From an uncultured Bifidobacteriaceae bacterium (GTDB lineage: Bacteria > Verrucomicrobiota > Verrucomicrobiia > Limisphaerales > UBA11358), in contig CAYTJG010000001.1 of the NCBI GenBank assembly GCA_964437865.1, positions 5,544 to 69,543 of the forward strand: 64,000 nucleotides of DNA. The letters are read 5' to 3'. Both the position numbers and the translations under genes were made by a program. Positions 27,055 through 51,279 of the stretch are shown piece after piece (the stretch's first letter is position 1; every line of letters begins with the position of its first letter). Under the pieces are notes generated by a model. It searched no databases. It was not told where the DNA came from and was given only the letters and a program-made list of their open reading frames with translations.

Positions 27055-27927
27055 CTATTGTCTGCGCTGGGTAAATCCGCGCGGCGACTGGCCCATTATC
27101 CTTTTGAAAACGCGTGAGAAATGATAGGGATCACTAAAACCGGCGTTTAGGGCAATTTCCTTTACTTGCAAACGGCCGGTTATTAGCCATTCGGCGGCGT
27201 GGTTGATTTTTTTTCGAATCAGGTAGCTATACGGGGAGGGGTACCCATGGGACTGGAACAGACGACAAATGTAGCATTTATTCATGCCCGCTGCGTGTGC
27301 GATTTCGTCCAGGTCTCGAAATTCCAAATGGCGAGTGTCAATCATATCTCGACAAGTCTCAAAGGTCTGGGTCGGGCCGCCATCCATCTCGGCGCTGGGT
27401 ATCTGGGCACCCGCCGTTTTCAAAATTAGGATGCGCAGCAGGCTGACGCAGATTTGTGACGTATTTCGCAGACCACGGCCACCTTCTGACAGCAGCATTT
27501 CGAGAAGTGCCCGGCAGTCTTCCAAGTCGGGAAGCTGCCTTGCGGTCCCGGGCGCGACAGAGCCGGATCTCAACAACTGAGCCGCTTCCCGGCCAAAGAA
27601 ATCCACGAAGTATTTGCGCAAGGGATTCTTGGGGTCGCTGATGATGTGATGCCTCGTGGTGGGGCCATAAATGAAAAGGACGCCGGCCCGGAGAGAGAAA
27701 GTTTTTTGATCCAGGTGAACCGTGCCGCTACCGCGTTCGACATACTCAAGACCGTAACAGGGGAAGGTCGAACGCTGGACAGAGTAATCAGGGCGGCAGT
27801 TTTCATGCCCGGCGCACGCAACATGCAGCCGTGGCCGAGACTGCTCTATGCGCTTTTCCAGGTGGCAGTAGCGCGACTGGCTAACTTGGAGGGAAACGGG
27901 TGGAATGGCTTTTGCGCGCATGAGCAA
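27055..27927 (-). CDS. AraC-family transcriptional regulator (cupin sensor + AraC HTH)
   Basis: C-terminal 'MNKCYICRLFQSHGYPSPYSYLIRKKINHAAEWL...VKEIALNAGFSDPYHFSRVFKRIMGQSPRGF' and an N-terminal cupin-like domain. The probable ATG is at 27921. The gene is divergent from the pseudopilin/LamG/GRE block. Confidence 0.85.
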   Translation of the reverse strand: MLMRAKAIPPVSLQVSQSRYCHLEKRIEQSRPRLHVACAGHENCRPDYSVQRSTFPCYGLEYVERGSGTVHLDQKTFSLRAGVLFIYGPTTRHHIISDPKNPLRKYFVDFFGREAAQLLRSGSVAPGTARQLPDLEDCRALLEMLLSEGGRGLRNTSQICVSLLRILILKTAGAQIPSAEMDGGPTQTFETCRDMIDTRHLEFRDLDEIAHAAGMNKCYICRLFQSHGYPSPYSYLIRKKINHAAEWLITGRLQVKEIALNAGFSDPYHFSRVFKRIMGQSPRGFTQRRQ

Positions 27928-27928
27928 A

Positions 27929-27955: not shown

Positions 27956-27998
27956 CCATAGTCATTTTCACAAGAAAAAGCGCTGTTAATATGAAAAC

Positions 27999-28796
27999 AT
28001 GACTCCCGGTAATAATCTACTGCGCAAAAAATCAAGTTGCGCGTTCACTTTGATTGAACTGCTGGTCGTCATTGCCATCATTGCCATCTTGGCGGCGTTG
28101 CTATTGCCCGCCTTGGCCAAGGCCAAGGACAAGGCCAAAGCTATTACGTGCATCAACAATTTGAAACAAATGGGAATTGCCCTGCCGCTGTATCGATCTG
28201 ACAACAACGACTACTATCCGTGCGGAATTGATCCTGCCATCGGTTCCGCATGGATTTGGCCGCCGCTGTTGCGGCAATATACCGGCAACAAAAACACGGC
28301 GGTTTTTCAGTGTCCATCCGCGCCTCCGCAATCGCAGTGGGTACTCTCGTTTGGCAGCGGACTACCAGCCATTGACGGCTACCTTCAAAACGAAGTGCAT
28401 TTGATCCCCGGCAGCACCAATTTTATGAGTTATGGCTATAATGTGTGGGGAGTGATCGTCGAGCATAATCCGAATCTGGGATTGGGAGTTTACAAGGATG
28501 ATCATGTCTGGGGCTCTGCAAAGGAAAGCTCGATTGTAAAGCCGACAGACATGATTGCAATCGGCGACAGCAATTGGGATTTGCAAAGGAACGGCGATCC
28601 GGATTGGAGCGGTTTCATAGGCATGTATGCGGAGCGCCAATGGCCATTGGATTTGCACAATCGACGGACAACCATCCTGTTCTGTGACAGTCATGCGCAG
28701 GCCGTGAAGCGCGCATTTGTAGTTTCACAACTGAACACCCCCACCACCGCGCCGGAACCCGACAAACTTTGGAACCGGGACAATCAGTATCACTGA
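27999..28796 (+). CDS. Prepilin-type N-terminal cleavage/methylation-domain protein (pseudopilin-like, DUF1559-like)
   Basis: '[49 protein letters not shown]' is the class III signal plus the conserved helix. The C-terminal '[16 protein letters not shown]' resembles the H-x9-D[GS] end motif of the family. Confidence 0.85.
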
Positions 28797-28907
28797 TGAG
28801 GCGCAGGACTGCCGGAAATTGCTCAAGAAAGGTATTTGTTACGCCTAACGAAGTTCGTGAAAAGAGCTTCACTTTCAAACAATTCGAACAGAAAAAACCC
28901 CAAAACT

Positions 28908-31900
28908 ATGAAAAAAACAAACAAGTGCCTGGCGGCGATTGGTCTGGCAATTGGGCTGGCGCAAATTATTTGCGCTGATTCCACGTGGAATGGCACGATT
29001 ACAAACAATCTGTGGTCTAATCCCAACAATTGGAGTCCGGTGGGCGTGCCACCGCCGGGAAATCCGACGACGACTTTTCAAGGCAATGTTTGGCTGGATC
29101 CTGCCAATGGCGACTCGACGATCACGATTGGCGCCGGCGATGTGGAAAGTCCCGGGGTCGGCAATACGAACGAAGTTTATAACACCATTTTCGGCCCGGA
29201 ATGGGGAGCCACGCTCAATATTTACGGCACCTTGAACTACGACTGGTTTTTGTTCCCGGTGCAGAACGATCCCACGCCGGGAAAACGCAGCTTGATTAAC
29301 ATCTTTACCAATGGGGTCACCAGCACCGCTGGTGCCGCGCTGGGAGTGGGCGATAGTTGGTGGAATACCGGCGCTCCCTATGTAACGGTGAATCTTTATG
29401 GCAACGCTCAACATAGCAGCCTGGGTGGTGCCGGGCTGTGGCTGGGCGGCCATTTGAACATCTATGACGTGGCCACGGTGACCATCGGGACGGGGGGGGG
29501 TGGCTACGTAAACATGGATACCGCCGGGCCGATGTCCGACGGCACTCGTTCCATCAATATGGGCGGCGGCACGCTGATCTTGCCGCCTGGTTTCGCGACC
29601 GCCAACGTTGGTAACTGGATTGCTCGGGGAATTCTCCGCGCGTACGGCAAGGGTTTGGATGCCAATGACCTCGTTATCACGGATAATGGCACGAATGTCG
29701 TCGTCAGCACGGTTCCGCTCGGGGGGGCGCTCCAACAGGTTTATTTTCAGACCTTGCTCGAAACCAACATGGGGGTGGGTTCTTTTCAACAGTCCGTTTT
29801 GGTTGGAGATTATCCCGCCGTCATCGGCGTGCTTTTGAGCTCTCCGGAACCCGGCTTGTCGCCGGCTTCGTTTAGCCAGCCCATTTACACCTCCAGTAAT
29901 CCCAAGGTGGTGGCGGTGGACAGCAACGGCATGATCTCGGCCGTCAGCCCCGGCAATGCCACCTTGACGGCCAAGGTCGGCGCGTTGAATACCACCAATT
30001 CCCTGCTGGTTACCGTCACGCCGCTGGGTGGCAACCTGATTCATCGTTACAGCTTCAGCGAAAGCTCGGGTGCTACCAGCGCTGATATGATTCCCGGAAA
30101 CAGCCCGACTTGGGATGCCACGTTAAACGGCGGAGCCACGCTGGGCGGCGGACAGGTGACCTTGGATGGTTCCAGTGGTTATGTGCAATTGCCAGCCGGA
30201 ATATTGAATGGCTTGGATGAAGTGACGATTCAGGCCTGGGCCAGCTTTGGCTCACCCATCAGTACGTGGGCAAATGTATTTGCCTTCGGCGACACTGATG
30301 GTAATGGAGAAGGGGAAAATTATATTGGTCTGCAAAGGACCGCCAGCGGCACCAGTGCCACTTTTGGCCAGGGAGACCCGGGCAACGCAGCGGAGCGCGA
30401 TGCCGTTTTCAATAGCACCTTGGATGGCCAAAGCAACGTGCAGGTAACCGCGGTCTATCATCCGCTCGCCGGATACGAGGCGCTGTATATCAATGGCTTG
30501 CAAGTCGCGACGATTTCCATGTTTAACAATCAGATTGATCCGGTGGCTTATGCGGGACCGACTTACAACGGCCAGAGCATCCTGGCTTATACCATCGGTC
30601 AGGACAATCTCAACTATATTGGTCATTCGTTGTATGACGGCGACCCAACCCTCAATGGTACCATTGACGAGTTCCGTATTTACAACGGCTGTTTGAATCA
30701 GGCGGAGGTGACGGCTAGTTACCAGGCCGGGCCGAACAACACGAATTACAATCCTGGTAATTTGGTCAGCGTCACCTTTTCCACAATGGAAACCAACCTG
30801 CCGTCCGGCCTCAATTATACGCCCACCACCTTCGCCAACTACGAGTTCGCAACCAACGTTCCGATTGCGACTGACAGCGCGCTGGCGCTGACCTCATCCA
30901 ACACGAACGTCGTCAACGTTGTCGGAAATCAACTGCATACCGGGGTCGGCGGCAGCGCGACGGTGAGCGCTTTTTATGAGGGCAAAACGGCCTCACTGAC
31001 AGTCTATGTTCTCCGCACGCCTGCCGTGTTGCTCCACCGCTGGAACTTCAACGAATCCAGCGGCACGATCGCCCACGACCTGGTGGGGGGAGCGGACGGC
31101 ACGCTGCAAGGAAGTGCGGCCTTTACGGGGTCCGGTTATGTCAACCTGCCGAACCCAGGCAGCAACCCGCAGACCGGCAACAGTTATGTAACCATTCCCG
31201 GCGGCCTGCTCAACAATTTGAGTGCGGTGACTGTGGAATGCTGGGTGACCAACAACGGTTGGAACAATGGCAACACCTTCGTCGGCTTTAGCGGCCCGAT
31301 TGACGAAAACGACTTTGGCACCAACTACATCAACTTTTATGCGCGGATGTACAGCAGCATTTCCGCCTTTGAGATTGCCACGACCTCAGGTGACTCCGGC
31401 CTCGAGGCGCTCGGCACCCGCGTGAACGACAACGGAGTGGCCAGCGGCATCCCGTCGCACTACGTTTATGTCTATGATCCGACGATCACTCACACGATTA
31501 CACTCTACACCAATGGCGTGCTGGCCGGGTCGCAGTCGGGCGCCAGCGTCCCGTTGAGTTCCTTGGGGACGAACGTCGGGACCATCGGGCTTTCCGTCTA
31601 TAGCCAGTCACAGAGTTACACGTTGACGCAAAATGGCGGCAGCAAAATCAACTGCCCGTATCTCAACGGCGGCGTCAACGAAGTGCGCATCTATAATGGC
31701 ATCCTCACGGCAGCGGACGTGGCAGCTACTCAAGCGCTCGGACCAGATCTGACCCTTGGCAGCAACACCGCCGTTTCATTGGAGGCCACCACCTCGGGCG
31801 ACAGCCTGAATCTGACTTGGCCAGTATCGGCGGCCACCTTCGGCGTGCTCAGCAGCCCGACCTTGGGTGCCGACGCGGTCTGGACGCCGGTGAGCGCGAG

Positions 31901-31982
31901 CCTGACGGTTGTGGGAGGCAGCTATAGCGTCACGTTGCCCCTGAACAGTTCGAATCAGTTCTTCCGGCTGCAACAGCATTAA
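28908..31982 (+). CDS. Large secreted LamG (concanavalin-like) / Big_2 domain protein with a conserved C-terminal domain
   Basis: Signal peptide 'MKKTNKCLAAIGLAIGLAQIICA'. Big_2-like 'SSNPKVVAVDSNGMISAVSPGNATLTAKV' and 'SSNTNVVNVVGNQLHTGVGGSATVSAFY'. Two LamG ends, 'TIDEFRIYNGCLNQAEV' and 'VNEVRIYNGILTAADV'. The protein ends '...NQFFRLQQH'. Confidence 0.8.
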   Translation: MKKTNKCLAAIGLAIGLAQIICADSTWNGTITNNLWSNPNNWSPVGVPPPGNPTTTFQGNVWLDPANGDSTITIGAGDVESPGVGNTNEVYNTIFGPEWGATLNIYGTLNYDWFLFPVQNDPTPGKRSLINIFTNGVTSTAGAALGVGDSWWNTGAPYVTVNLYGNAQHSSLGGAGLWLGGHLNIYDVATVTIGTGGGGYVNMDTAGPMSDGTRSINMGGGTLILPPGFATANVGNWIARGILRAYGKGLDANDLVITDNGTNVVVSTVPLGGALQQVYFQTLLETNMGVGSFQQSVLVGDYPAVIGVLLSSPEPGLSPASFSQPIYTSSNPKVVAVDSNGMISAVSPGNATLTAKVGALNTTNSLLVTVTPLGGNLIHRYSFSESSGATSADMIPGNSPTWDATLNGGATLGGGQVTLDGSSGYVQLPAGILNGLDEVTIQAWASFGSPISTWANVFAFGDTDGNGEGENYIGLQRTASGTSATFGQGDPGNAAERDAVFNSTLDGQSNVQVTAVYHPLAGYEALYINGLQVATISMFNNQIDPVAYAGPTYNGQSILAYTIGQDNLNYIGHSLYDGDPTLNGTIDEFRIYNGCLNQAEVTASYQAGPNNTNYNPGNLVSVTFSTMETNLPSGLNYTPTTFANYEFATNVPIATDSALALTSSNTNVVNVVGNQLHTGVGGSATVSAFYEGKTASLTVYVLRTPAVLLHRWNFNESSGTIAHDLVGGADGTLQGSAAFTGSGYVNLPNPGSNPQTGNSYVTIPGGLLNNLSAVTVECWVTNNGWNNGNTFVGFSGPIDENDFGTNYINFYARMYSSISAFEIATTSGDSGLEALGTRVNDNGVASGIPSHYVYVYDPTITHTITLYTNGVLAGSQSGASVPLSSLGTNVGTIGLSVYSQSQSYTLTQNGGSKINCPYLNGGVNEVRIYNGILTAADVAATQALGPDLTLGSNTAVSLEATTSGDSLNLTWPVSAATFGVLSSPTLGADAVWTPVSASLTVVGGSYSVTLPLNSSNQFFRLQQH

Positions 31983-31998
31983 AATGAGTTCCGCCCGT

Positions 31999-32028
31999 CG
32001 GCGGAGGCGCTTTGCGGCGTCTCCGCCG
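31999..32028 (+). terminator. GC-rich intercistronic stem-loop (no U-tract) between the LamG gene and the GRE gene
   Basis: 'cggcggaggcgc-tttgcg-gcgtctccgccg' forms a 12-bp stem with one G-U pair, 17 bp after the stop. The lack of a T-run argues for a stabiliser or partial attenuator rather than a full terminator. Confidence 0.3.
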
Positions 32029-32110
32029 AAACCATGCAAGCAAACAACATATCCAACGACATCATCAGCTATTTCGTGCAATTCGAATCATACTTTGTAG
32101 AAACTCAAAT

Positions 32111-34387
32111 ATGCCTGATGCCCGCGAAGAGATCCCTGCTTTGAAACTAGTTTACGGAAACCGCCTGAAAGTGTTGGCCGAGCGTCGCGATCGATTGGGG
32201 CGAGAAGGCCGGCGCAGCAACTTTGTGGACAACCCGGAATTCCTGGTTTATCACTGGTCGGGCGTGGGCGAAGGCTTTGCCCCGCCCACCGGCGAGCAGG
32301 CGGTCAGCCGGCGCCTCAACATCGGCGACAACAATTGCCGTGTTGCCCTGGGCATGCCTTTCCCGCACGCGGCAGAAATGCCATCACGCCAGCACGGCCA
32401 CGTGAACGATGTGCTCAACTGGGCGCGGGATTACGCATTCTTTCTGGACCACAATCCCTGTGAAATCCATCCCGAGGAGGAGGTGGTCGGCGAATTTCAC
32501 TGGCAGTTGGACGAGGCGCGGCGTTTCCGGTATCCCGACGACGTGCGGGAAGCGGGTTTCAATGCGCGAAAATTGGGCGCGGGCGGCATTAGCTACGCGC
32601 ACACCTGCCCCGATCTGTCAATCGGTCTGGAATTGGGCTGGGGCGGATTGCTCACGAAAGTCCGCCAATGGAAGGCCAGGCATGAGGCCAACGGCAACGA
32701 GCCGGCAGCGCGTTATCTGGCCGGCCAGGAATTGGTCGTGACCAGCATCCAACGCTGGGTAAAACGCCATGCGGAGAAGGCCGCCAAACTCGCTCATGAA
32801 GCGCCGCCCGAATTGGCCCGACATTATCTCGTCGTGGCGACAACGTGCGAAGCCATCATCAGCAAGCCACCGCAGACATTTTTGCAGGCCATCCAATGGC
32901 TTCAGTTTTTTCAACTGGCCGAGCGCATTATCGCGCATGGCAATGGCTATGGCCGGCTGGACCAGTTGCTGCTGGATTTTTACCGGCGCGACCTGGCTGC
33001 CGGGCGGATGGCGCGCGAGGAGGCACGCGAATGGCTCGCCGAATTATTCTGCAAATATGGCGGCAATTATTTTTCCGTGGGCGGGCGCGACCGGCTGGGC
33101 CGCGATGCCACCAACGAATTGAGCCGCGTCGTTCTTGAGGCCTACGACTTGAACGGCGGTGACAACAACCTCGGCGTGATGTGGCACGTGGACATGGACA
33201 AGTCATTCTTTAACTACGCCTGCGAAGTGCTGGGCCGCCACGGGACGGGTACGCCGGTGCTCATTAATTATGACGTATTACGCGACAGCGAACTGCGCAG
33301 CGGTGTCAGCGATGAGCACGCCTGGAACGTTGCGTATTCCGGCTGCCAGTGGTATTGCGTGGTCGGCCGTGAATACAACGACCAGGATTTGAATTCGCTC
33401 GTGTTGTTGCAGCCCATGGGGCGTGCCATCCGCCGGGCGGTTGAGGCGGACGTGAAACGTTTTGACGAGTTGTTCCGCCTTTTGAGCGAGGAGACCATGG
33501 CTACCGCGATGGCGTTGCGCGATTTAAAGAACGCCACGTATATGTGGCAGTGCCGCGTCTGGCCGGAGATGGTTACTTCGCTCTGCATGCACCACTGTAT
33601 TGAGCGCGGACGCGATTGTACCGCTGCTGGCGCAGTGGATTACAATCTGACTTCGGTGAATATTCTCGGCGTGCCGAACGTGTCGGACTCGCTTCAGGCC
33701 ATCAAGCAACTGGTTTTCGACGAGTGTCGCTACACTCTTGCCGAGGTGGAATCGGCCGTCAAATCCGACTGGGCCGGGCAAGAGCCAATGCGCCGTGAAT
33801 TTCTCAACGCGGAAAAATTCGGGAACGACCTGGCGGGGCCAGACGCGATGATCGTGCGCCTGTCTGAAATGGTGCAGGAGTGCCTGGAATCACTGCGTCA
33901 TAACAAAGGCGGGCATTTTCGCGCGTCGCTCTTTCAATACATGGGGCACACCTATGCCGGGCCGATGCTGGGGGCCACGCCGGACGGACGCCATGCCGCT
34001 GAGCCGCTGGCACATGGCATGAACCCCATGCACGGGCGGAACACGAAGGGTATGACCGCCACGGCCAATTCCTTTTGCAAGGTGAACTTCCGAAAATTCC
34101 AGGGCGGCTCGTTTCAGATTGAACTGGAGCCGACTTATTTTCCCGAAAGCGCCCGCCGTAGCGACATGATTGAAGTGTTTGCGCGCACCTTTTTCAAGCT
34201 CGGCGGCGTGCAAATAAACTTGAACATCCTGTCCCTGGAAAAGTTGAAACTGGCGATGGAGCGGCCGGAACTGCCAGAACATCAGGCCATCATCGTGAAG
34301 GTAACGGGCTACTCGTCGCACTTCCTCATCATGGACCGGAAATTCCAAGAGGAGTTTGTTCAGCGCGTGAATTACCCAACGCTCTGA
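32111..34387 (+). CDS. Glycyl radical enzyme (PFL2 / dehydratase-lyase-type fold) with an atypical Cys loop
   Basis: 'QTFLQAIQWLQFFQLAERIIAHGNGYGRLDQLLLDFY', 'GRDATNELSRVVLEA', the Cys loop 'VAYSGCQWYCVVGREY' (Cys codon 33344-33346) and the glycyl radical motif 'IIVKVTGYSSHFLIM' (Gly codon 34307-34309). The ORF opens at 32012, but ATG 32111 follows the stem-loop. Confidence 0.85.
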   Translation: MPDAREEIPALKLVYGNRLKVLAERRDRLGREGRRSNFVDNPEFLVYHWSGVGEGFAPPTGEQAVSRRLNIGDNNCRVALGMPFPHAAEMPSRQHGHVNDVLNWARDYAFFLDHNPCEIHPEEEVVGEFHWQLDEARRFRYPDDVREAGFNARKLGAGGISYAHTCPDLSIGLELGWGGLLTKVRQWKARHEANGNEPAARYLAGQELVVTSIQRWVKRHAEKAAKLAHEAPPELARHYLVVATTCEAIISKPPQTFLQAIQWLQFFQLAERIIAHGNGYGRLDQLLLDFYRRDLAAGRMAREEAREWLAELFCKYGGNYFSVGGRDRLGRDATNELSRVVLEAYDLNGGDNNLGVMWHVDMDKSFFNYACEVLGRHGTGTPVLINYDVLRDSELRSGVSDEHAWNVAYSGCQWYCVVGREYNDQDLNSLVLLQPMGRAIRRAVEADVKRFDELFRLLSEETMATAMALRDLKNATYMWQCRVWPEMVTSLCMHHCIERGRDCTAAGAVDYNLTSVNILGVPNVSDSLQAIKQLVFDECRYTLAEVESAVKSDWAGQEPMRREFLNAEKFGNDLAGPDAMIVRLSEMVQECLESLRHNKGGHFRASLFQYMGHTYAGPMLGATPDGRHAAEPLAHGMNPMHGRNTKGMTATANSFCKVNFRKFQGGSFQIELEPTYFPESARRSDMIEVFARTFFKLGGVQINLNILSLEKLKLAMERPELPEHQAIIVKVTGYSSHFLIMDRKFQEEFVQRVNYPTL

Positions 34388-34406
34388 AAATTGACGCAGG
34401 TCATCA

Positions 34407-35402
34407 ATGGACTCACCCACCGCGCTGGTCTTTGACGTGCATCGCAACTCGACCCACGACGGGCCGGGCATCCGCACAACTATCTTTCTCAAAGGCTGCC
34501 CGCTGCGCTGCCAGTGGTGCCACAATCCGGAGAGCCGGGGGGGAACCCCGGAAGTCTGGTGGTTCGGCCAGAACTGCATCAGTTGTTTCCGCTGCGTCGA
34601 GGCTTGCAGCCGGAAGGCCTTGACTTCAACGGAAGCTGGCATACTGATTGACCGTGCCAAGTGCGAAGGCTGTCAGGACTGCGTCCGCGCGTGTCCGGCG
34701 CGCGCGCTGCGACCGGTTGGTGAGTGGAGAACACTTTCGGAGTTGGTGGCGGAAGCAGAGTCGGATCGCGTCTGGTATGAAGCCACCGGCGGCGGGGTGA
34801 CCTTGTCCGGCGGTGAACCGTGTGCGCAACCGGATTTCGCGATGGCATTTTTGGCGGGCTGCCGCGAGCGCGGGTTACACACGGCACTGGACACGTGCGG
34901 CCAGGCGGCAACGGGAACTTTTGCTCGGGTGCTCGATGGCGTTGATCTGGTTTTGTTTGATTTGAAACATCCGAACGAAGCCGTCCACCGGGAACTCACG
35001 CATGCCGGGCTGTCGACTATTCACGCCAATCTGCGGGAAGCGGCCAGGCGCGCGCGTGTGAAACAACTGAAGCTCTGGATTCGGACGCCGCTGATTCCTG
35101 GCGCAGCGGCGGCGGCGGCGGTGCTGAAGGACCTCGGAAATCTTTTGCGCAACGAATTTGCCGGCGCCATCGAACGGTGGGAGCTGTGTGCTTTTAATCC
35201 TTCGTGCCGCGCAAAGTATCACCGGCTGGGTCTGATCTGGCCATATGAAAACGAAGGACTGCTGGACGAGGCCAGCGCCGCCTGCTTTCTGGCGGTTGCG
35301 CAGAAGGCGTTTGGAGATGAAGCGCTCGTTCATCTGCAAGGAATTCGCCGCAGCCCGACGACAAACAAACAAACTTGCTTGAAACCGGCCGTGCATAATT
35401 GA
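34407..35402 (+). CDS. Glycyl radical enzyme activating enzyme (radical SAM with two auxiliary 4Fe-4S motifs)
   Basis: '[26 protein letters not shown]' (CX3CX2C), ferredoxin-type '[16 protein letters not shown]' and '[16 protein letters not shown]', and '[10 protein letters not shown]'. It lies 20 bp after the GRE stop. Confidence 0.9.
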
Positions 35403-35409
35403 AAAAATC

Positions 35410-36816
35410 ATGACCATGACAGTGGCAGAAAAAACGTCGGTGCTGACCAATGCCAAGCCCCGCGGCGGCATGTTCCGCGCACCCGGTGGCGGGAGCTACG
35501 CGGTGACGTTTGTGCTCGTTTGTTCACTGTTTTTGCTCTGGGGCCTGTGCAACACCTTGCTGGACGACCTCAACAAGCACTTTCAGAATTCGCTCCATGT
35601 CACCAAGGCTCAGTCGGGACTCGTACAGGGCATTTGGTACCTTGCCTATTTTGTGATGGCATTTCCAGCGGGTTGGGTCGCAAAGCGAACCGGCTATCGC
35701 GGAGGTATTCTCGCCGGGCTGGGAATCGTGATTGTCGGCTCGTTGCTCTTCATTCCAGCCGGCAGGGTTGACGCCCCGCAGTCGGTGCACTTTGCGATTT
35801 TTCTCACGGTTCTATTCGTCCTCGCGACGGGCTTGGTCTTTCTCGAAACCATCGCGAATCCCTATACAACCGTGCTGGGACCGACGGAAACTTCGGTCAG
35901 CCGAATTAATCTTGCGCAGTCGTGCAACGGCGTCGGCTCCATTATTGGTCCGTTCATCGGTGCGACGTTCATTCTGTCGCAGACCGCCGCAGTGAACACC
36001 AGCAACGCGAGTCTCTACCTGCCATATCTCGTGATCGCCGGCGTCGTGGCCGTGATGATGATTATCTTTGCCTTCGCCCCGATTCCCGAGCTCAACGCGC
36101 CCGAAGAGGCGAAGAATCCCCGGACTCCCGCCGAGCATGTGCGCCCGCTTGGGCACGAAAGACACTACGTATGGGGGGTAGTCTCACAGTTTTTCTACTG
36201 CGCTGCGCAGACCGGTATCTTTAGCATTTTTATCAACTATGTGCGAGACGACAGGCACATGCCGCCATTGCCGCTCTGGCTCACCAAACAGCTGCCCGAC
36301 ACAATGAAATACCTTGAGGGGGGAAGTTGGCACATCACTGAATATGCCGCCGGCGTGATGCTCTCCGGGGCGTTCATATTTTTCACGGTTGGGCGTTTCT
36401 CTGGAAGCGCGATTCTGCGTTATTTTTCGCCCCACCGCACATTGGGCTTTTACGCACTGATCAATGTTGTGTTGATGGTGCTGCTGTTCTTGAACCTCGG
36501 GTGGCTTTCGGTGGCCTCGTTAGTGCTAAGTTTTTTCTTCATGTCGATCATGTATCCCACGCACTTTGCGCTCGCGATTCGCGGCCTCGGCGGTCGCACA
36601 AAATTTGGTGCGGCTGGCATGGTTACGGCCATTCTCGGCAGCGGTCTGGGCCCGATTAGCATGGGTTGGATTGCGGATCACTACGGTATGGCGGACGGCT
36701 TTTTGTTGCCCCTGGCATGCTTCAGCTTCATCGCCTGCTATGGCTTTGCGTGGAGCAGCTTGTTCGCTCGCGATATGGAGCCGGAATCAGATAGAGCGCC
36801 CGGGCGCACTCACTAA
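35410..36816 (+). CDS. FHS-family MFS sugar:H+ symporter, L-fucose permease (FucP)-like
   Basis: Collinear with E. coli FucP as remembered: 'FVLVCSLFLLWGLCNTLLDDLNKHFQ', 'LETIANPYTTVLGP', 'INLAQSCNGVGSIIGP', 'FFYCAAQTGIFS', 'FFMSIMYPTHFALAIRGLG'. It lies 8 bp after the activase stop. Confidence 0.8.
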   Translation: MTMTVAEKTSVLTNAKPRGGMFRAPGGGSYAVTFVLVCSLFLLWGLCNTLLDDLNKHFQNSLHVTKAQSGLVQGIWYLAYFVMAFPAGWVAKRTGYRGGILAGLGIVIVGSLLFIPAGRVDAPQSVHFAIFLTVLFVLATGLVFLETIANPYTTVLGPTETSVSRINLAQSCNGVGSIIGPFIGATFILSQTAAVNTSNASLYLPYLVIAGVVAVMMIIFAFAPIPELNAPEEAKNPRTPAEHVRPLGHERHYVWGVVSQFFYCAAQTGIFSIFINYVRDDRHMPPLPLWLTKQLPDTMKYLEGGSWHITEYAAGVMLSGAFIFFTVGRFSGSAILRYFSPHRTLGFYALINVVLMVLLFLNLGWLSVASLVLSFFFMSIMYPTHFALAIRGLGGRTKFGAAGMVTAILGSGLGPISMGWIADHYGMADGFLLPLACFSFIACYGFAWSSLFARDMEPESDRAPGRTH

Positions 36817-36941
36817 TTTCAAAAATGAAACACTGGAATTCAAAATAGGAACCGGACCTCTCCGGAGGATGCCGGTCGCCGGCGCTGGCCGGGCAATGCA
36901 GGAATGGTCGGCCAATCCGGCGCAAGTCACGGAAAACCACT

Positions 36942-38756
36942 ATGAAATCAAACATGATAACCAGAATGAAAAGGCTGAATGCGCTCTTCTCCGCGGCGCT
37001 TTTATTGTGCGTTACCGGCTGGGCGCAAACCAACCGCACGCCGACCTTTGAAGCCATTTATCAACGGAAAATTCCGGCTTGGTTCAACGAGGCCAAGTTC
37101 GGAGTGTTCATCGTCTGGGGCGTTTATTCGGTTCCTGGTTGGGCGCAGAAGGGCCAATATGCCGAATGGTACGGCCATAACATCCTGGATCAGGGCAGCC
37201 CTTCGCAACAATATCACGAGCGCGTCTGGGGCAAGCACTTTACCTACGACCAGTTTGTGCCGCTGCTTAGCGGCGAAGGTTTTGACGCCAACGAATGGAC
37301 TTCGTTGATCCAGAAAGCCGGCGCAAAATATGTCGTCACCGCCGCCAATTACCACGATGGCTTCGCGATGTATCCGACCACGTATGCCGTCTCGAAATTC
37401 GGTGATCACTGGAACGCATTTGATCGGGGACCTCATCGCGATGTGCTGGGCGAACTCGAAGCCTGCGGCAACGCCAAGGGTTTGAAGATGGGTATTTATT
37501 ACTCCCTCTACGAATGGTGGAATCCGCTATATATGAGCGGACAGCTTGAAAAATATGCGCGCGACCATCTGGGACCTAAGTTCAAGGAAGTCGTCACCCG
37601 GTACCATCCTCCGGTGATCTTTCTCGACGGCGAATGGGAGCATCCTTATCAAACATGGCATTCGGATGAGCTGGCGAATTGGCTTTACACTGAATCGCCG
37701 GTGAAGGACGAGGTGGTCGTGAATGACCGCTGGGGCTGGGTGCGTGGAAAGTATGGCGATTACTTGTCCAGCGAATACGGCGGCGGCGACTATCCGCCGA
37801 CGCACCCGTGGCAGGAAGATCGCGGCATCGGCAACAGCTACGGATACAATCGCAACGAGGATGCATGGGATTATAATACACGACAAACGCTGGTGCGTTT
37901 GCTTTCCACTGTTTGCGGCAACGGCGGCAATCTCCTGCTCGATATTGGGCCGACGGCCGACGGCCGCATTCCGCCCATTATGGAGGAACGTCTGTTACAA
38001 ATCGGCGACTGGCTCAGCAAAAATGGCGCGGCCATCTACGGGAGTGGTGCCAGCCCGTTCTGGCCCCGCAAATTTGAGTGGGGCGTGTGCACCGCGAAGG
38101 GTGACACGGTGTTCCTGCATCTTTTTGATCAATCCACAAAGAGTTTGGATATCAAGGGGTTTTCCGCCGACGTGGAAGGCTGCAAGTATCTCGCCACCGG
38201 CGCGGACCTGAAGTTCGCCACGCGCAAAGACGAACTGCACCTCGACCTAACTCCCGTGAAGCCTGACAGCGACGACACCGTGATCGCGGTGAAAATCCAT
38301 GGCAAACTCAAAGCCGACAAACGACCGCACCAATACGAAAGCGGCAGGATTCTGATATCCGCATGGTCATTAACGATTAACGGCTCCAAGGCAAAAATGC
38401 GGTTCGACGGTTTTGAAAAAATCGCGCATATCACAGACTGGACAGATCCGTCCGAAACGGCGTCCTGCAGATTCGTGGTTAACCAACCGGGGCGCTATCA
38501 AGTCAGTGTAACCTATTGTAGCGACAAAAACAGCGCAGGCTCCGCAGTCATTTTAAACTTTAACAATCAGAAAATCGATTTTGTTTCCGGTGACACTGGC
38601 GGTTGGAGTGGTGGAAATTACCAAAACATGAATTGCGGAACGATTTCGCTTTCCCAAGTGGGCGAGCAGCAGCTTTCCATCGTGCCCGTGGCGAATGGCT
38701 GGAAAAATATCGCCATCAAACAAATTCTTTTGACGCCGGAAAAGCGGCGGTCATAG
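36942..38756 (+). CDS. GH29 alpha-L-fucosidase with a C-terminal beta-sandwich (CBM-like) domain
   Basis: A signal peptide, then 'IPAWFNEAKFGVFIVWGVYSVPGW...YAEWY', 'AKYVVTAANYHDGFAMYPT' and 'GGNLLLDIGPTADGRIP' typical of GH29. The last ~150 aa form a CBM-like module. Confidence 0.8.
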   Translation: MKSNMITRMKRLNALFSAALLLCVTGWAQTNRTPTFEAIYQRKIPAWFNEAKFGVFIVWGVYSVPGWAQKGQYAEWYGHNILDQGSPSQQYHERVWGKHFTYDQFVPLLSGEGFDANEWTSLIQKAGAKYVVTAANYHDGFAMYPTTYAVSKFGDHWNAFDRGPHRDVLGELEACGNAKGLKMGIYYSLYEWWNPLYMSGQLEKYARDHLGPKFKEVVTRYHPPVIFLDGEWEHPYQTWHSDELANWLYTESPVKDEVVVNDRWGWVRGKYGDYLSSEYGGGDYPPTHPWQEDRGIGNSYGYNRNEDAWDYNTRQTLVRLLSTVCGNGGNLLLDIGPTADGRIPPIMEERLLQIGDWLSKNGAAIYGSGASPFWPRKFEWGVCTAKGDTVFLHLFDQSTKSLDIKGFSADVEGCKYLATGADLKFATRKDELHLDLTPVKPDSDDTVIAVKIHGKLKADKRPHQYESGRILISAWSLTINGSKAKMRFDGFEKIAHITDWTDPSETASCRFVVNQPGRYQVSVTYCSDKNSAGSAVILNFNNQKIDFVSGDTGGWSGGNYQNMNCGTISLSQVGEQQLSIVPVANGWKNIAIKQILLTPEKRRS

Positions 38757-39001
38757 AAGGAAAACATCGAGGATCACCATAAAATCTCCGCACGTTTTGC
38801 ACGCTCTTTCGCTTCCGTTTCAAACTTTCGGTCGTGCAAAGGCCGACGGTGCTTCCGTGACCAAGACGGCGAAGCCTGCGGTGACAATCCCCAACAGGGA
38901 CATTGCCCGGGGTGAGGTTTGATGCGGCATCGTCCGCATCGGGTAAGGAATTGTTTTCGACAACGCAAGCTACTACTAATCAATACATAACAAATTAAAA
39001 A

Positions 39002-41620
39002 ATGAAAAGACTGACATTAAAATTATGCTGTACGCTCGCCGCTGCGTCCTTGGCGCTATCGTCAAAGGCTCAGTTTGCCATAGCGGACGTGGGAACCACC
39101 GCTCCCACGCCGGGGCCGAATGACGTATATTGTATCATCCCAAGCATCCAAGATAATGATGGCCTGAATTATTATTGGGATAACGGTAATCCGGTTGGCC
39201 AGACCTTTGTCACGGGATCGAACTCCACCGGTTACACGTTGATGAGCTTGGCACTTATGACCGCTGGCAACGGAGGCAGTTGGGGAAGTGGGGCGGCCGC
39301 CTCGGTATTGGCGTCACAGAACTTCACCTTGACGATCTACTCCATTGATGAAAGCGGGAATGCCACCCCGGTGGCGACCAATTCGACCGTTGGAGCGTTG
39401 ATTACCCAGGGTGATTGGATGCAATGGAGCGGACTTGGTGTGCCGCTGTTGCCCAATATGAATTATGCTTATACCTTCAAAGACGGCGATACCGATTCAG
39501 GTGGGAATTGGGAACAGTTGGCCAACAACGGCAATAATCCGTATACCAATGGGCAGATTTGCAGCATTCCCGTCGGTGGCGGCGCGGTGGAATTCGGCAA
39601 CAGCGGCATTTCGGATGCGGTGTTTGATATTGGTCTGGCGCTGGGAACTGCGCCCGGCGGTACGGTGACGATTGCGGATATTGGCGCGAACGCACCGACA
39701 CCGGGAGCCAACGATATCTCGCAGTTGCTGCCCACGGTTGTTCCCATGCAAAACAACTATGGCTTGAATTATTATTGGGACAGTGGTGCGGGCGAGACCT
39801 TCCAAACGCCGAGCAGCACTGTTCCGTGGTTGTTGACCAATCTTGTAATCGGAACCGGTGGCAATGGTGGCGGTGGCCAGACTGCCGCCCAGGCTTTTGT
39901 CCTGAGAATTTACTCTGTTACGAACAACGGCGCGACCGCCATATTGATTTATTCGAATTCCTACAACACTTCACTCAATGCAGATTTGGATTGGATGCAG
40001 TGCAGCGGAATGAATCTCAGGTTGAATCCCAATCAACAATATGCCTACACCTTTTATCGCGGCAACAGCGGAAGTTGGGAACAAATGGCTGATTACGACC
40101 ACCATCCTTATTCAGGCGGCATGATTTGCCTGATTCCACCCGCCGGCGGCACAATTGAATATGGTAGTCAAAGCGGGAATAGTTCCTCGGATGCGGCATT
40201 TGACGTGGGTCTCGCGGCCGAATCGGTTTATGCGCAAATTCCAACCTATACACCCGAAGTTAATCCCATATACGCCGGCACGCCCGTGACTCTGAGTGAA
40301 GCTCCAGTGGGCACCGGGACGATGTCTTTTCAATGGCAGACCGATGGCGGATCCGGCGGCACATTGACAAATATTCCAGGTGCATCCAGCTCCAATTTGC
40401 TGGTAAGTACAGCCGGCTTGGCTGCGGGAACATTCAATTACGACGTGGTTGTCAAAACGATGGCCGGGGGCGGCATCTCCTCCACCAGCGCCGTGGCGCC
40501 GCTGACGATCATTGCTGCGAGCGCGCCTTTCCTTGTGACGGATACGACGGCGTCGCCCAATGCTGCAAGCAACTACGTGGGATTAAGTCAAATCTACTCA
40601 GCCTCGTTCTCCGGAACCTTGCCATTTGGTTACCAATGGTATGTTGCCTCCAACGTTAGCGGGTCCGGATCAACCCCGGTAGCTGGCGGAACCAATGCAA
40701 CGCTGGTGCTGAACAACCTGCAACTTGCTAACAGTGGTTATTATAGCTTGCAGGCGACCAATAACGTATATCCCTACAGCCTCAACAGCAGTTGGACGCA
40801 ACTGACGGTGTTCCCGGCCGCAGACATGCTGGTTCATTGGCAGGCGCCGGTGGTGTTCAACGGCCTCACGGCCGGCCAAATATTGACAAACAATATACCG
40901 GGAACATTTTTCGAAGGCGCCTATTTTGGCACTGCCACCGAACCCATTCCGGTTGTGCTGAACGGCGTTACCAACACTTTTTACGGTGATGGGTCAACTA
41001 TTTCAATCAGCGGCCAAGATGGCGAAAATCAGGGAACTTGGCTGACGGGTGGCATTACCACTGGAGATACAAATCTCGATACCATCCTCAACCAGTTCGC
41101 TTACAACATCAGTACAGGCACTCAGTTGATGTCCATTCATAATTTGCTTTTGGGAACGAACTACTATGTCCAAATTTTTGCGTTGGATGACCGCCTGGCT
41201 GGCGCGGGGCAATTCACGTCGTTTCAAAATCCCACGGACAATGCCGATGTTTCAGCCGCCTGGGCAATGTCGGCAAACAACTATGTCGTGGGCACCTTTA
41301 CCGCTCCCAACACTGACGTGGACATTCAACAAAATCTGTTTCCGGTTGGCAGTTTGAATGCCGTGATAGTTGGAACGGCAATTCAGAGCCTGGTTAACAC
41401 CAACCCATTGACGGTAAACTTCAAGGCCACACTGTCGGGGCAGGCGTTGAAATTCACGTGGTCCGCCGACCACCAAGGGTGGCAACTCTATACCAATGCG
41501 GTGGGAGTGGCCGCAACCAATAGCTGGTATCCAGTTTCAGGTTCGGCCAACGGAACCAGCCAGACGATCACGCTGGATCCTACCAAATCCAACGTGTTCT
41601 TCGAATTGCGCTATCCGTAA
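39002..41620 (+). CDS. 872-aa secreted multi-domain protein (tandem N-terminal ~195-aa modules, Ig-like domains, conserved C-terminal domain)
   Basis: Signal peptide 'MKRLTLKLCCTLAAASLALSSKA'. Two homologous modules ('IADVGTTAPTPGPND...GLNYYWDNG...DAVFDIGLA' and 'IADIGANAPTPGAND...GLNYYWDSG...DAAFDVGLA'). Ig-like 'NATLVLNNLQLANSGYYSLQATN'. The protein ends '...SNVFFELRYP'. Confidence 0.7.
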   Translation: MKRLTLKLCCTLAAASLALSSKAQFAIADVGTTAPTPGPNDVYCIIPSIQDNDGLNYYWDNGNPVGQTFVTGSNSTGYTLMSLALMTAGNGGSWGSGAAASVLASQNFTLTIYSIDESGNATPVATNSTVGALITQGDWMQWSGLGVPLLPNMNYAYTFKDGDTDSGGNWEQLANNGNNPYTNGQICSIPVGGGAVEFGNSGISDAVFDIGLALGTAPGGTVTIADIGANAPTPGANDISQLLPTVVPMQNNYGLNYYWDSGAGETFQTPSSTVPWLLTNLVIGTGGNGGGGQTAAQAFVLRIYSVTNNGATAILIYSNSYNTSLNADLDWMQCSGMNLRLNPNQQYAYTFYRGNSGSWEQMADYDHHPYSGGMICLIPPAGGTIEYGSQSGNSSSDAAFDVGLAAESVYAQIPTYTPEVNPIYAGTPVTLSEAPVGTGTMSFQWQTDGGSGGTLTNIPGASSSNLLVSTAGLAAGTFNYDVVVKTMAGGGISSTSAVAPLTIIAASAPFLVTDTTASPNAASNYVGLSQIYSASFSGTLPFGYQWYVASNVSGSGSTPVAGGTNATLVLNNLQLANSGYYSLQATNNVYPYSLNSSWTQLTVFPAADMLVHWQAPVVFNGLTAGQILTNNIPGTFFEGAYFGTATEPIPVVLNGVTNTFYGDGSTISISGQDGENQGTWLTGGITTGDTNLDTILNQFAYNISTGTQLMSIHNLLLGTNYYVQIFALDDRLAGAGQFTSFQNPTDNADVSAAWAMSANNYVVGTFTAPNTDVDIQQNLFPVGSLNAVIVGTAIQSLVNTNPLTVNFKATLSGQALKFTWSADHQGWQLYTNAVGVAATNSWYPVSGSANGTSQTITLDPTKSNVFFELRYP
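39071..40230 (+). repeat. Internal tandem duplication (two ~195-codon modules) within the 39002-41620 gene
   Basis: Module 1 spans roughly 39071-39650 and module 2 roughly 39650-40230. Conserved strings appear in the same order in both: IAD[VI]G..APTPG.ND, GLNYYWD.G, GNGG, IYS, DWMQ.SG, YAYTF, WEQ, SDA.FD[IV]GLA. Confidence 0.7.
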
Positions 41621-41639
41621 TCATGGGATGACGGGGACG

Positions 41640-41672
41640 GCCGCCGCAGTTTAGAGACTGCGGCGGCATTTT
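41640..41672 (+). terminator. Rho-independent terminator after the 872-aa protein gene
   Basis: A perfect 11-bp stem 'gccgccgcagt'/'actgcggcggc' with a 6-nt loop 'ttagag', followed by 'atttt'. It starts 20 bp after the stop codon. Confidence 0.6.
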
Positions 41673-42418
41673 GAGGCAAAGCTGGACACATGAAAGCCGC
41701 CGTTTTGTTTTGATCGGAACGCCACGGCCAACAGTCCCCGGCGCTGCTGGTGCCTCACCGACTGCCTCGTCTGGTTGATGTATTTCCGCAAGGTCGCGAT
41801 GTCTCGAACTTTGAACCCCCGGGTGAAATTCACTGCGGTGTTCGGGTCAGGTGTGAGTGCTTGAACAAGCCTGATTCAATCCGGGTGCACGGGCGGAATG
41901 AGCTTTTTTGCTTTACTAACTCTCTTGAATCACGCTTGTTGAAGGACTAGTCCCGCAGGACTTGAAGCGAAGCGCCTGGATGGTTTTGTCGCAGCGCTTT
42001 GCATCGCTCCGGGCAACTTGCATTGTCATAAAGGGTTAAAAGGACGACATTACAACTCCAGAAGATGTCATTACAACATTATCTTAAATTGAAGTAATTG
42101 CGCTTTAATTTCGCCGCCGGCGCAATCAAAGTAGCGCTGTTCCACACAGGTTCTGAATCAGCCAATTTTGATCACGATCCTTTTCACACATGAGGACTAC
42201 ACGATGCTCTATTGCTGTCGAAATCAACAAATGAGTTTCGTTTCACCCTCACCGGTAGCCGCCACCTGGTCATCGTGGTGGAAGGTTGCGCGAATCATGT
42301 TCAAGGTTGTCTGGCAGCCCATGCAATCCCGCGCGCTGGCGACTGGCGCGTTTCGTTTCGATGCTCCTCAGTGGGCGAGTTATCCAAGCCGCTTTTGCCG
42401 TCTTCGGACACCAAGATT

Positions 42419-44004
42419 ATGACCCACACCAATCTAAGGTTAACGGTTTACCTAATCGCGGCAACCTTATTCGCTGGCGGCCCATTGATTGCGGCGGATG
42501 GCCAAACCAGTGGCAAAAACATTTTCAAATCACCGGACATTCCGGCACACCCGGCCTCGTATTCCGAACCATTACGGCCACAATACCACTTCACCCCGGA
42601 AAAGAACTGGATGAATGATCCTGATGGCCTGGTGTTTTACGCCGGCGAATACCACCTCTTTTACCAATACAACCCACTCGGAAACATCTGGGACCACATG
42701 AGTTGGGGCCACGCCGTAAGCACGGATCTGATCCACTGGAAACATCTGCCAGTGGCGTTGCGGGAGGCTGATGGCCTCATGATCTTTACAGGCAGTGCGG
42801 TGGTGGATTGGAATAAAACCAGCGGCTTTGGCCTGGATGGTAATCCCCCTTGGTTGCCATTTACGCGGCTTATCGTCGGTCGGACAACGTGCAGTTTGAG
42901 TGCATCGCCTACAGCAACGACAGAGGTCTCACGTGGACAAAGTACGCTGGCAATCCCGTCATTAATCTGAACTCAAAGGATTTTCGCGATCCAAAAGTGC
43001 AATGGCATCAAGGCACCGGACGCTGGATCATGACGGTGGCGCTCTCGGTCGAGCACAAAATCTGCTTTTATGGTTCCAAAAACTTGGAGGATTGGACCTT
43101 ATTGAGCAAATTTGGCCCTGCGGGAGCAATTTCCGGGGCTTGGGAATGCCCGGACCTCTTCGAATTGCCAGTGCAAGAAGGCAAAGAAAAGCTATGGACG
43201 TTGACCATCAGTGTGGACGCTGGATTGGCTGGGGGCTCGGTGGGACAATACTTCGTGGGTACATTCGACGGTACTCGTTTCACGCCAAATCCGGCGCCGG
43301 CACTACTCTACGACTACGGGCCTGATTGCTACGACACTGTCTCTTGGAGTGATGTTCCAAAGACGGACGGGCGTCGGCTCTGGCTTGGTTGGATGGGCAA
43401 CTGGGCCTACAGCTACAACGCGCCCACCTCACCGTGGCGCGGCACCATGTCAATCCCGCGTGAACTTCACCTGCGCAAAACCAGCGAAGGCGCCCGATTG
43501 GCTCAAACGCCGGCCAGAGAAATGAAATCCTTGCGGGATAAACACTATGAATTCAAAGGAGGCAATATTGCGGAGGCCAACGCGTGGATCGCCGGCAATC
43601 AGATTGCCGGAAAGCCACTTGAACTGATCATTGCCTTCGCGCCAAGGCCGCATGGCGTTGAAGGGGTGAAGGTCTTGAAGAACACCAGCGAGGGTACGGC
43701 GATTGGGGTGGATCACACGCACGCGCAGATTTTTCTGGATCGATCGCGTTCTGGGAACGTGGACTTCCATCCCAAATTTCCAGGCATTTATCGCGCGCCG
43801 TTCGTTACCGGGAACCAACCGGTAAGCCTCCAGATTTTCGTCGACACCGGCTCCGTGGAAGTTTTTGCCAACCATGGCGAATGCGTTCTCACCGGGCTCG
43901 TATTCCCGAGTCCGGATAGTCGAGGCGTGGAAGTGTTCGGAACGGACCCGGCGACAAAGATCCTCTCCGTGGACGTGTGGACATTGAAGTCCATTTGGAA
44001 CTAA
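42419..44004 (+). pseudogene. GH32 beta-fructofuranosidase/levanase-type gene interrupted by a 1-nt frameshift at 42844-42850
   Basis: Frame 1 gives a signal peptide, then '[34 protein letters not shown]' up to 'GLDGNPP'. Frame 2 continues '[32 protein letters not shown]...FRDPKV...WECPDLF'. The intact paralog at 54676 reads 'GKDGKPPLVAIYTG...' across the same point. The break falls in 'aatCCCCCTTgg'. Confidence 0.8.
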
Positions 44005-51265: not shown

Positions 51266-51279
51266 TAGTGAAAAATACA

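Follow-up and report, generated by a model that had tools for sequence, protein, structure and literature searches.

A glycyl radical enzyme lineage without the CXE glutamate is encoded with fucose release and uptake genes in a Verrucomicrobiota operon and in other phyla

Mucins, human milk oligosaccharides, plant pectins and algal fucoidans all carry L-fucose as a major terminal sugar. In the accepted view, anaerobes break it down with FucI, FucK and FucA, or by a non-phosphorylative route, and then by propanediol processing. The glycyl radical enzyme (GRE) that has classically been tied to fucose is the 1,2-propanediol dehydratase of microcompartments induced by fucose or rhamnose, as in Roseburia inulinivorans, from loci of the GRM3/5 (GRE-associated microcompartment) types. 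The closest analogue of a GRE and activase pair within a sugar-uptake operon is found in the "anhydroglycolysis" loci of the GRE sugar isomerases PflD and YbiW, which are C-O lyases of 1,5-anhydromannitol-6-phosphate and 1,5-anhydroglucitol-6-phosphate, respectively. The substrates of these two enzymes are phosphorylated sugars, and aldolases then cleave what they produce (PMC13450708); the June 2026 review of GREs has no GRE acting directly on fucose (PMC13450708). Here we describe four genes in a 64-kb stretch of contig CAYTJG010000001.1 (the whole of this stretch is called the window), which encode a GRE, its activating enzyme (activase), a FucP-type symporter and an alpha-L-fucosidase of glycoside hydrolase family 29 (GH29). 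We found that the GRE belongs to a distinct, uncharacterised lineage outside the known GRE clades and that its physical coupling to fucose release and import is conserved across phyla. We searched the literature on fucose-acting GREs, on GREs tied to fucosidases, GH29, fucoidan, polysaccharide utilisation loci or URO-D and on anaerobic demethylases of methylated sugars, and found no description of this family. The clade is distinct, the lead to its substrate is strong and can be tested, and some of its hosts are in culture.

The four genes occupy positions 32111-38756 of the + strand in the order GRE, activase, symporter and fucosidase, with intergenic gaps of 19, 7 and 125 nt (coordinates re-read from the sequence; Table 1). 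A preliminary description of this DNA had placed four co-directional genes here, and all of them were recovered; the strings it quoted from the GRE (QTFLQAIQWLQFFQL, NGYGRLDQLLLDFY and IIVKVTGYSSHFLIM) are all found in the translation, and so are the motifs it quoted from the activase (DGPGIRT, CPLRCQWC and two copies of Cx2Cx2Cx3C). The GRE matched the Pfam PFL-like domain, named for pyruvate formate-lyase (PFL) (PF02901; 281 bits, E 3e-83, residues 162-616), and the Gly_radical domain (PF01228; 55 bits with a cut-off of 22, E 1e-14), and its AlphaFold2 model had a full-length GRE fold (pLDDT 76, pTM 0.83). The catalytic core looks functional. The symporter, predicted to be of FucP type, scores just under the TIGR00885 cut-off (Table 1), shares 36% identity with E. 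coli FucP over the full length and conserves Q159, N162 and the key proton-coupling/substrate residues D46 and E135. The FucP orthologue of Parabacteroides segnis reached 381 bits in the same TIGR00885 comparison. The fucosidase has an N-terminus that resembles a signal peptide (read by eye from the sequence, with no predictor) and a DUF5077-like C-terminal domain.

The GRE did not reach the cut-off of any model of a characterised GRE. The NCBIfam equivalogs scored between 85 and 235 bits, with cut-offs of about 1000-1150: PRK09983 for the PflD/YbiW type (235 bits, cut-off 1109), HypD (206, 1100), HpfG (192, 1000), HpsG (186, 1000), CutC (152, 1050), IAD (150, 1100), HPAD (124, 1150) and TIGR01255 for PFL (86, 994). 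The more general PFL2/glycerol dehydratase subfamily model, TIGR01774, gave 297 bits with a cut-off of 678. By Foldseek, the modelled GRE was similarly distant from all the solved eliminases and isomerases (TM-scores of 0.73-0.77 over about 760 columns, 19-23% identity). The best sequence match in PDB was E. coli PflD (8yjo, E 5e-55), but some twelve further GREs had E-values that differed from this by no more than a few orders of magnitude.

Several known identities were examined and rejected. PFL is the name that most databases give to this family and, like PFL and TdcE, the window GRE has more than one Cys on its Cys loop, but the arrangement is C412-x3-C416, whereas PFL has the adjacent pair Cys418-Cys419; besides, only the C-terminal third aligns. 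A 1,2-propanediol or glycerol dehydratase was rejected for the missing CXE motif, the sub-threshold scores and the lack of recurring genes for a bacterial microcompartment (BMC) shell or an aldehyde dehydrogenase. A GRE decarboxylase was rejected because the IAD and HPAD scores are far under their cut-offs and no gene for a small Fe-S subunit occurs between or beside the GRE and activase. A succinate synthase is unlikely, as BSS and MASS align weakly, over the C-terminal third alone, and the accessory subunit genes were not found beside the GRE and activase. Finally, membership in the eliminase/isomerase group (glycerol dehydratase, propanediol dehydratase, HypD, CutC, IslA/IseG, HpsG/HpfG, HplG, PflD and YbiW) was rejected since the CXE motif that defines the group is absent. 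The GRE thus falls in no characterised clade, by its profile scores, its low identity to solved enzymes and its lack of the CXE Glu, which agrees with the "possibly unassigned" function proposed in the preliminary description.

The CXE motif has its Glu in every GRE eliminase or isomerase known so far, two Cys residues on the Cys loop are known for PFL and TdcE only, and the glycyl fingerprint opens with RVxG (PMC13450708). In the window GRE, GCQW aligns with GCVE of PflD, so that Trp414 stands in place of the CXE Glu and is followed by Tyr and then Cys416. The Cys loop announced in the preliminary description is indeed present, but it is not of the canonical form that the description implied. 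On the glycyl side, comparison with the fingerprint RVxG[FWY]x6-8[FL]x4Qx2[IV]x2R showed that G733, Y734, Q746 and R752 are kept and that there are three family-wide deviations, namely KVTGY for RVxG, Met at the [FL] position and Phe at the [IV] position. We aligned 16 family sequences from Verrucomicrobiota, Spirochaetota, Bacteroidota and unnamed lineages and found C412, Q413, W414, C416, VKVTGYS and EFLVYHWSG to be invariant; because of this invariance across several phyla, we regard the loop deviations as conserved features and not as decay.

A wider alignment of 146 GREs comprised members of the family, representatives of the nearest 50%-identity clusters and, from E. coli, PflD and YbiW. 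C412 was invariant (146/146), 100 sequences had CxE and 34 had CxW. All 34 CxW sequences came together as a single clade, with zero CxE sequences inside, when a neighbour-joining tree was rooted on PflD. Position 426 is Asp in 34/34 members of this clade, and position 671 is acidic (Glu or Asp) or His in 32/34, whereas the CxE enzymes have mainly Lys at 671. The second loop Cys occurs in 16/34 CxW sequences, and the Lys730 variant in 11/34, which correspond to the core family and its nearest cluster. Some more distant CxW relatives (P0122, P0125, P0130, P0134 and P0143) lie on short contigs or in an uninformative gene context. The GRE retains His164, aligned with a His that is conserved in nearly all the GREs compared; presumably this is the position of the general-acid His of glycerol dehydratase and the diol dehydratases. 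The acid/base machinery may have been rearranged rather than lost, with Asp426 and Glu671 as putative replacements of the CXE Glu, and Trp414 may stack on the sugar ring.

Compared with the described systems, the window locus resembles those of PflD and YbiW in the full-length PFL-like fold of the GRE, the adjacent activase with two ferredoxin-type motifs, the sugar uptake system encoded beside them and the His aligned with His164. It differs in that the two E. coli enzymes are only 26-29% identical to the window GRE (PflD 28.5%, YbiW 26.3%), fall outside the CxW clade and keep both CXE (GCVE, GCIE) and a Lys at the 671 position, where the window GRE has GCQW, Cys416, Asp426 and Glu671. Their loci also contain components of the phosphotransferase system, and that of ybiW the aldolase gene fsaA, whereas the window has a predicted proton symporter, which would deliver a non-phosphorylated sugar, with no linked aldolase or kinase. 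The propanediol dehydratase of R. inulinivorans shares the fold (TM-score 0.75, 5i2g) and has an activase of the same subfamily, but its identity to the window GRE is about 22%, and the genes linked to the window family serve the release and uptake of fucose rather than lactaldehyde or propanediol metabolism; no shell protein, aldehyde dehydrogenase or phosphotransacylase recurs in the window or in the 78 loci described below. With the E. coli fuc regulon (fucPIKUR-fucAO) the locus has in common the FucP-type symporter and a sugar-responsive activator, but a GRE and activase sit where the catabolic enzymes would be. We found no FucI, FucK, FucA, FucO, FucU or BMC shell gene among the scanned ORFs (open reading frames) of the window, which were those of 200 aa or more with a few exceptions. 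For the fucose pathway, the earlier statement that the window has no isomerase, kinase, aldolase or shell gene therefore holds; one kinase, a PfkB protein, is part of a separate fructan cluster.

We also examined the gene neighbourhoods of the family. ORFs were called in 78 species-level loci and clustered, and the recurrent clusters were named with Pfam and NCBIfam models. Within six genes of the GRE, an activase was found in 61 of the 78 loci and an AraC regulator in 39 (directly adjoining the GRE in L008-L011), followed by GH29 (27 loci), FucP (25), LacI-type regulators (about 15), URO-D/MtaA-like proteins (13), a ribose-type sugar ABC (ATP-binding cassette) transporter (about 10), a PhyH-type Fe/2-oxoglutarate (Fe/2OG) oxygenase (9), GH95-like proteins (8), sulfatases (7), a rhaM-type mutarotase (6) and RhaT-like proteins (4). 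Taking GH29, GH95, FucP, FucI or the mutarotase within 8 kb as a fucose marker, we found a marker in 34 of the 65 loci that had four or more neighbours, from Bacteroidota (18/20), Acidobacteriota (4/6), Spirochaetota (6/13), Bacillota (1/11), Verrucomicrobiota and Chlorobiota. The physical coupling of this GRE to fucose release and import is conserved across phyla.

The individual loci vary around this theme. A lineage with an 87%-identical GRE (L008) keeps the core of an AraC regulator followed by the GRE, activase, major facilitator superfamily (MFS) transporter and GH29 genes, within wholly different flanks and with an additional isomerase-like gene. The fucose linkage is thus not unique to this genome, which answers the question of synteny raised in the preliminary description. 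Two cultured gut bacteria have compact operons: in P. segnis, a GH29, GRE, activase, FucP and GH95 series lies beside an AraC gene of opposite orientation, and in Blautia hominis a YesMN-type two-component system precedes the GRE, activase, GH29 and an oligosaccharide ABC transporter. In Treponema and Diplocloster the locus is reduced to the GRE and activase pair with a regulator and a sugar ABC transporter, which fits a GRE that acts on the imported sugar itself.

When E. coli Fuc and Rha proteins were used as probes against all fetched loci, FucP was detected in 28 of them (the window and two copies from the same species included), FucI in 3 Spirochaete species, FucU in 2 loci and a FucA-like protein together with an FGGY kinase in 1 locus, and homologues of FucO, RhaA and RhaD in 0. 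A rhamnose-specific association of the GRE was rejected, as RhaA and RhaD occur in no locus. Neighbour cluster c69 was considered as FucI and discarded, since it is a chemotaxis receptor; FucI is cluster c20. None of the families that recur around the GRE in the 78 loci is a BMC shell protein, aldehyde dehydrogenase, phosphotransacylase or iron-containing alcohol dehydrogenase (Fe-ADH), and aldolases and kinases occur only in single loci (e.g. L067), without recurring, which argues against a module of the propanediol dehydratase type. One locus with an aldolase, that of the facultative anaerobe Photobacterium sagamiensis (L087), combines the GRE and activase with a class II aldolase of the fructose-bisphosphate type, FucU, a ribose-type ABC transporter and an aldo/keto reductase, and carries genes for a PfkB kinase, a Sugar_tr MFS transporter, a chemoreceptor and a DeoR regulator as well; it is the only locus whose gene set hints at a downstream route through a kinase and an aldolase.

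Two other groups of neighbours were observed. URO-D-family proteins of the MtaA/CmuA type lie near the GRE in L003/L076, L034, L040, L043, L067, L022, L025, L028, L051 and L054, often as 2-3 paralogues and together with the rhaM mutarotase, and have a conserved HxC plus His as a putative Zn site. Such genes also flank two distant CxW GREs (L093 and L096), with no corrinoid protein seen nearby. The PhyH-type oxygenase, with an intact HxD...H motif (L014, L016, L027, L033, L038, L048, L063 at 7476-8450 and L066 at 5198-6022), often follows directly after the activase, in the same operon as the oxygen-sensitive GRE, and in five such loci the next gene encodes a 274-aa xylose-isomerase-like TIM-barrel protein; the oxygenase may serve as a counterpart under oxic conditions or catalyse an additional step. 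PDB sequence searches with a URO-D-like protein and with the 274-aa protein (c17) gave no useful match.

The lack of membership in known clades and the recurrent fucose linkage support the earlier proposal of a radical enzyme for L-fucose or an immediate derivative. Taken broadly, we consider it probable, to a modest degree, that the GRE acts on imported L-fucose or a near derivative. In this scheme the secreted GH29 would free L-fucose outside the cytoplasm, the FucP-type symporter would bring it in, the adjacent radical S-adenosylmethionine (SAM) activase would put the radical on Gly733, and the thiyl radical of Cys412 would take a hydrogen atom from the imported L-fucose or a close derivative. 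Candidate substrates in the cytoplasm would be L-fucose, the corresponding ketose or a 6-deoxyhexose with an ether modification. PflD and YbiW open chemically inert sugar rings, and by this analogy the most economical chemistry would be a radical isomerisation or C-O cleavage.

Some observations weigh against a GRE acting on the imported sugar. In 31 of the 65 loci, about half, the 8 kb around the GRE hold no fucose marker; these include most of those of Bacillota and all of those of Chloroflexi. FucI lies beside the GRE in three Spirochaete species, one of which (L067) also has an FGGY kinase and a class II aldolase; the GRE may therefore complement the canonical route, acting before or after it. 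Among 217 otherwise unclassified neighbour proteins (of up to 640 aa and not covered by the earlier scans), we found no recurrent family of downstream catabolic enzymes that would account for the fate of a sugar-derived product. Finally, the Gly loop and the N-terminal motif were modelled at pLDDT <50.

One alternative is that the GRE works downstream of FucI, FucK and FucA on a three-carbon product, either converting the hydrate of L-lactaldehyde to propionate or serving as an atypical 1,2-propanediol dehydratase. If propionate were made directly, or if the product were excreted or handled generically, dedicated downstream genes would not be needed, and the absence of a conserved downstream enzyme in the 65 loci is what a terminal step would predict. 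L067, with a FucA-like aldolase, FGGY kinase and FucI and without FucO, suits it; RhaT-like or rhaM-like genes in some loci also agree with it, since rhamnose too is converted to lactaldehyde, and so does the retained His164, presumably at the position of the general acid of the diol dehydratases. However, the GRE lacks the CXE Glu of every known GRE diol dehydratase, the TIGR01774 score is below half of its cut-off, no BMC shell, aldehyde dehydrogenase or Fe-ADH recurs and FucO is absent throughout. The neighbours, moreover, are genes of release and uptake (GH29 27, FucP 25) far more than of catabolism (FucA 1, FucK 1, RhaA/RhaD 0 loci). We regard a three-carbon substrate as unlikely.

We also doubt that the substrate is a chemically inert, ether-modified deoxyhexose from the same glycans, such as an O-methyl-fucose or an anhydro form, with the GRE as an anaerobic cleaver of C-O (ether) bonds. 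The MtaA/CmuA-like proteins with their HxC site, found in 13 loci and also near distant CxW relatives, the PhyH-type oxygenase of 9 loci, one MtmB-like neighbour protein and the recurrent xylose-isomerase-like protein could all speak for it, the first three of these being of types known for ether or methyl-group chemistry, and the first, second and last of types used in methyl-ether or sugar rearrangement chemistry. The best sequence match among solved structures, PflD, is itself a sugar GRE that opens an ether ring, and co-occurrence with FucI would suit a step that feeds the canonical route. Against this, we saw no corrinoid protein in the vicinity of the URO-D-like genes, neither URO-D-like nor PhyH-like genes were found among the scanned ORFs of the window, and the GRE lacks the CXE base that the mechanism would be expected to use. 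A beta-elimination of methanol would presumably yield a deoxy-keto sugar and not fucose, and the downstream enzymes would still be missing. It is very improbable that the linkage has no functional meaning, with a general fermentative (PFL-like) GRE or one for an unrelated metabolite placed there by chance or by shared anoxic regulation: the marker-free loci and the public annotation as PFL-family protein or formate C-acetyltransferase would agree with it, but the TIGR01255 score is far from its cut-off, the adjacent Cys-Cys pair is absent, at least five phyla repeat the association with fucose genes in operons whose genes are closely packed on one strand, and in the marker-free loci that we examined in more detail the GRE is still accompanied by transporters for sugars and regulators of sugar type.

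Returning to the action of the GRE on imported L-fucose or a near derivative, a narrower form of this reading is that the CxW clade is a new functional class of GREs, with the window GRE as its founding, tractable member, which would perform radical chemistry directly on free, non-phosphorylated L-fucose without the CXE Glu and provide an undescribed, oxygen-sensitive entry to its catabolism. We put this forward as a tentative possibility.

The family is large, with at least 416 distinct 90%-identity clusters recovered by its profile at E <= 1e-200, and together with the invariant motifs this indicates that it is conserved and under selection. Its members appear in the databases as "pyruvate formate lyase family protein", "formate C-acetyltransferase", "choline trimethylamine-lyase" or "hypothetical", or with no name. 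We found GREs 80-89% identical to that of the window in peat Verrucomicrobiota and in Acidobacteriaceae/Terracidiphilus, and other members in marine and sediment Prolixibacteraceae and Marinilabiliaceae (Labilibacter marinus, Carboxylicivirga sediminis, Draconibacterium), in gut P. segnis and Tannerellaceae, in Lachnospiraceae (Faecalicatena contorta, F. fissicatena, Blautia hominis, Diplocloster), in Spirochaetes (termite-gut and free-living Treponema, others), and in Chloroflexi, Victivallales and P. sagamiensis. The assignment of the window to the PVC (Planctomycetes-Verrucomicrobia-Chlamydiae) bacteria made earlier holds, because the best named relatives of its sigma-70 gene are from Limisphaerales and Verrucomicrobiota (about 52-62% identity), but the module is not PVC-specific, which limits that framing. 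The closest GRE homologues (80-89%), from Verrucomicrobiota and Acidobacteriaceae/Terracidiphilus metagenome-assembled genomes of peat and soil, split into L014, L016-L020 and L039 on one side and the window with L013, L015 and L021 on the other; a match of 89% (L012) is binned as Bifidobacteriaceae, probably by a binning error. As the GRE is 80-89% identical across two phyla, compared with about 52-62% for the sigma factor, these sequences suggest that the module may have moved horizontally between Verrucomicrobiota and Acidobacteriota recently.

Upstream of the operon, the divergent AraC-family regulator is probably its sensor and activator, and the best explanation of the interval 27055-38756 is an AraC-controlled fucoside-harvesting operon. 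Two genes lie between the regulator and the GRE. The DUF1559-like gene is not present in L008, and it is uncertain whether it is part of the fucose module; the same uncertainty applies to the LamG/Big-like gene, likely a glycan-binding surface protein, which corresponds to a gene call of L005 and is not conserved in L008. Two such pairs of DUF1559-like and large LamG proteins (27999-31982 and 48953-52161) flank the fucose and fructan clusters, which suggests a recurrent Verrucomicrobial surface glycan-binding module. The 872-aa ORF on the other side of the operon gave no match in a PDB sequence search and is not conserved in the lineage with the 87%-identical GRE. Further downstream, a fructan-utilisation cluster (42850-60430) with three GH32 genes is unrelated to the fucose operon, and about 12 kb upstream there is a B12-binding radical SAM protein (562 aa, 18464-20152) that is unrelated to the GRE activase. 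A promoter and terminator scan of 26500-42900 gave counts not above those of shuffled sequence and therefore carries no information on the operon boundaries.

Table 1. Features of the window, with coordinates counted from its first nucleotide.
Feature	Coordinates	Strand	Evidence and remarks
Glycyl radical enzyme, 758 aa, ATG start	32111..34387	+	Pfam PFL-like and Gly_radical
N-terminal family-specific motif EFLVYHWSG (GRE)	32237-32263	+	
Cys loop YSGCQWYC (GRE)	33335..33358	+	Aligned with PflD VVGCVELS; catalytic Cys412, Trp414, second Cys at +4
Key residue C412 (GRE)	33344-33346	+	
Key residue W414 (GRE)	33350-33352	+	
Key residue C416 (GRE)	33356-33358	+	
Gly loop VKVTGYSSHF (GRE)	34295..34324	+	Radical-bearing Gly733; Lys for Arg of the RVxG fingerprint
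Key residue G733 (GRE)	34307-34309	+	
GRE-activating radical SAM enzyme	34407..35402	+	TIGR02494 (PFLE_PFLC) 282 bits, cut-off 174
CX3CX2C motif CPLRCQWC (activase)	34497-34520	+	
Two ferredoxin-type Cx2Cx2Cx3C motifs (activase)	34575-34607, 34662-34694	+	
FucP-type L-fucose:H+ symporter (MFS)	35410..36816	+	TIGR00885 277.9 bits, just under the cut-off of 280.4
GH29 alpha-L-fucosidase	36942..38756	+	PF01120 328 bits, E 1.5e-97, profile positions 8-344 of 345
AraC-family regulator, cupin sugar-binding domain	27055..27927	-	Pfam AraC_binding and HTH_18
Prepilin-type N-methylation/DUF1559-like protein	27999..28796	+	Pfam N_methyl and SBP_bac_10; between AraC and GRE
Large LamG/Big-like protein	28908..31982	+	Pfam Laminin_G_3 and Big-like; stops 128 nt upstream of the GRE
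872-aa ORF	39002-41620	+	Directly 3' of GH29; weak Ig_3 match only, nothing above the Pfam threshold
GH32	42850-44004		Fructan cluster
DUF4432	44492-45715		Fructan cluster
GntR/LacI-type regulator	45683-46864	-	Fructan cluster
Periplasmic binding protein	47024-48034		Fructan cluster
Sugar_tr MFS transporter	52277-53719		Fructan cluster
PfkB kinase	53728-54666		Fructan cluster
GH32	54676-56826		Fructan cluster
GH32	56906-60430		Fructan cluster

That five or more phyla, with cultured human-gut species among them, have a radical enzyme wired directly to genes for fucosidases and for the import of fucose suggests a missing step of anaerobic fucose catabolism or a route parallel to it, with a bearing on cross-feeding, on propionate and propanediol formation and on carbon turnover in peat and marine sediments. 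A GRE lineage with Trp for the CXE Glu, co-varying Asp426 and Glu671 and, in the family of the window GRE, a second loop Cys promises undescribed chemistry or an undescribed acid/base architecture. The present names of the family are generic or wrong, and solving one member would re-annotate many. If the reading is true, this entry to fucose would serve Bacteroidota of gut and marine habitats, Lachnospiraceae of the gut, Treponema of termites, and Verrucomicrobiota and Acidobacteriota of peat.

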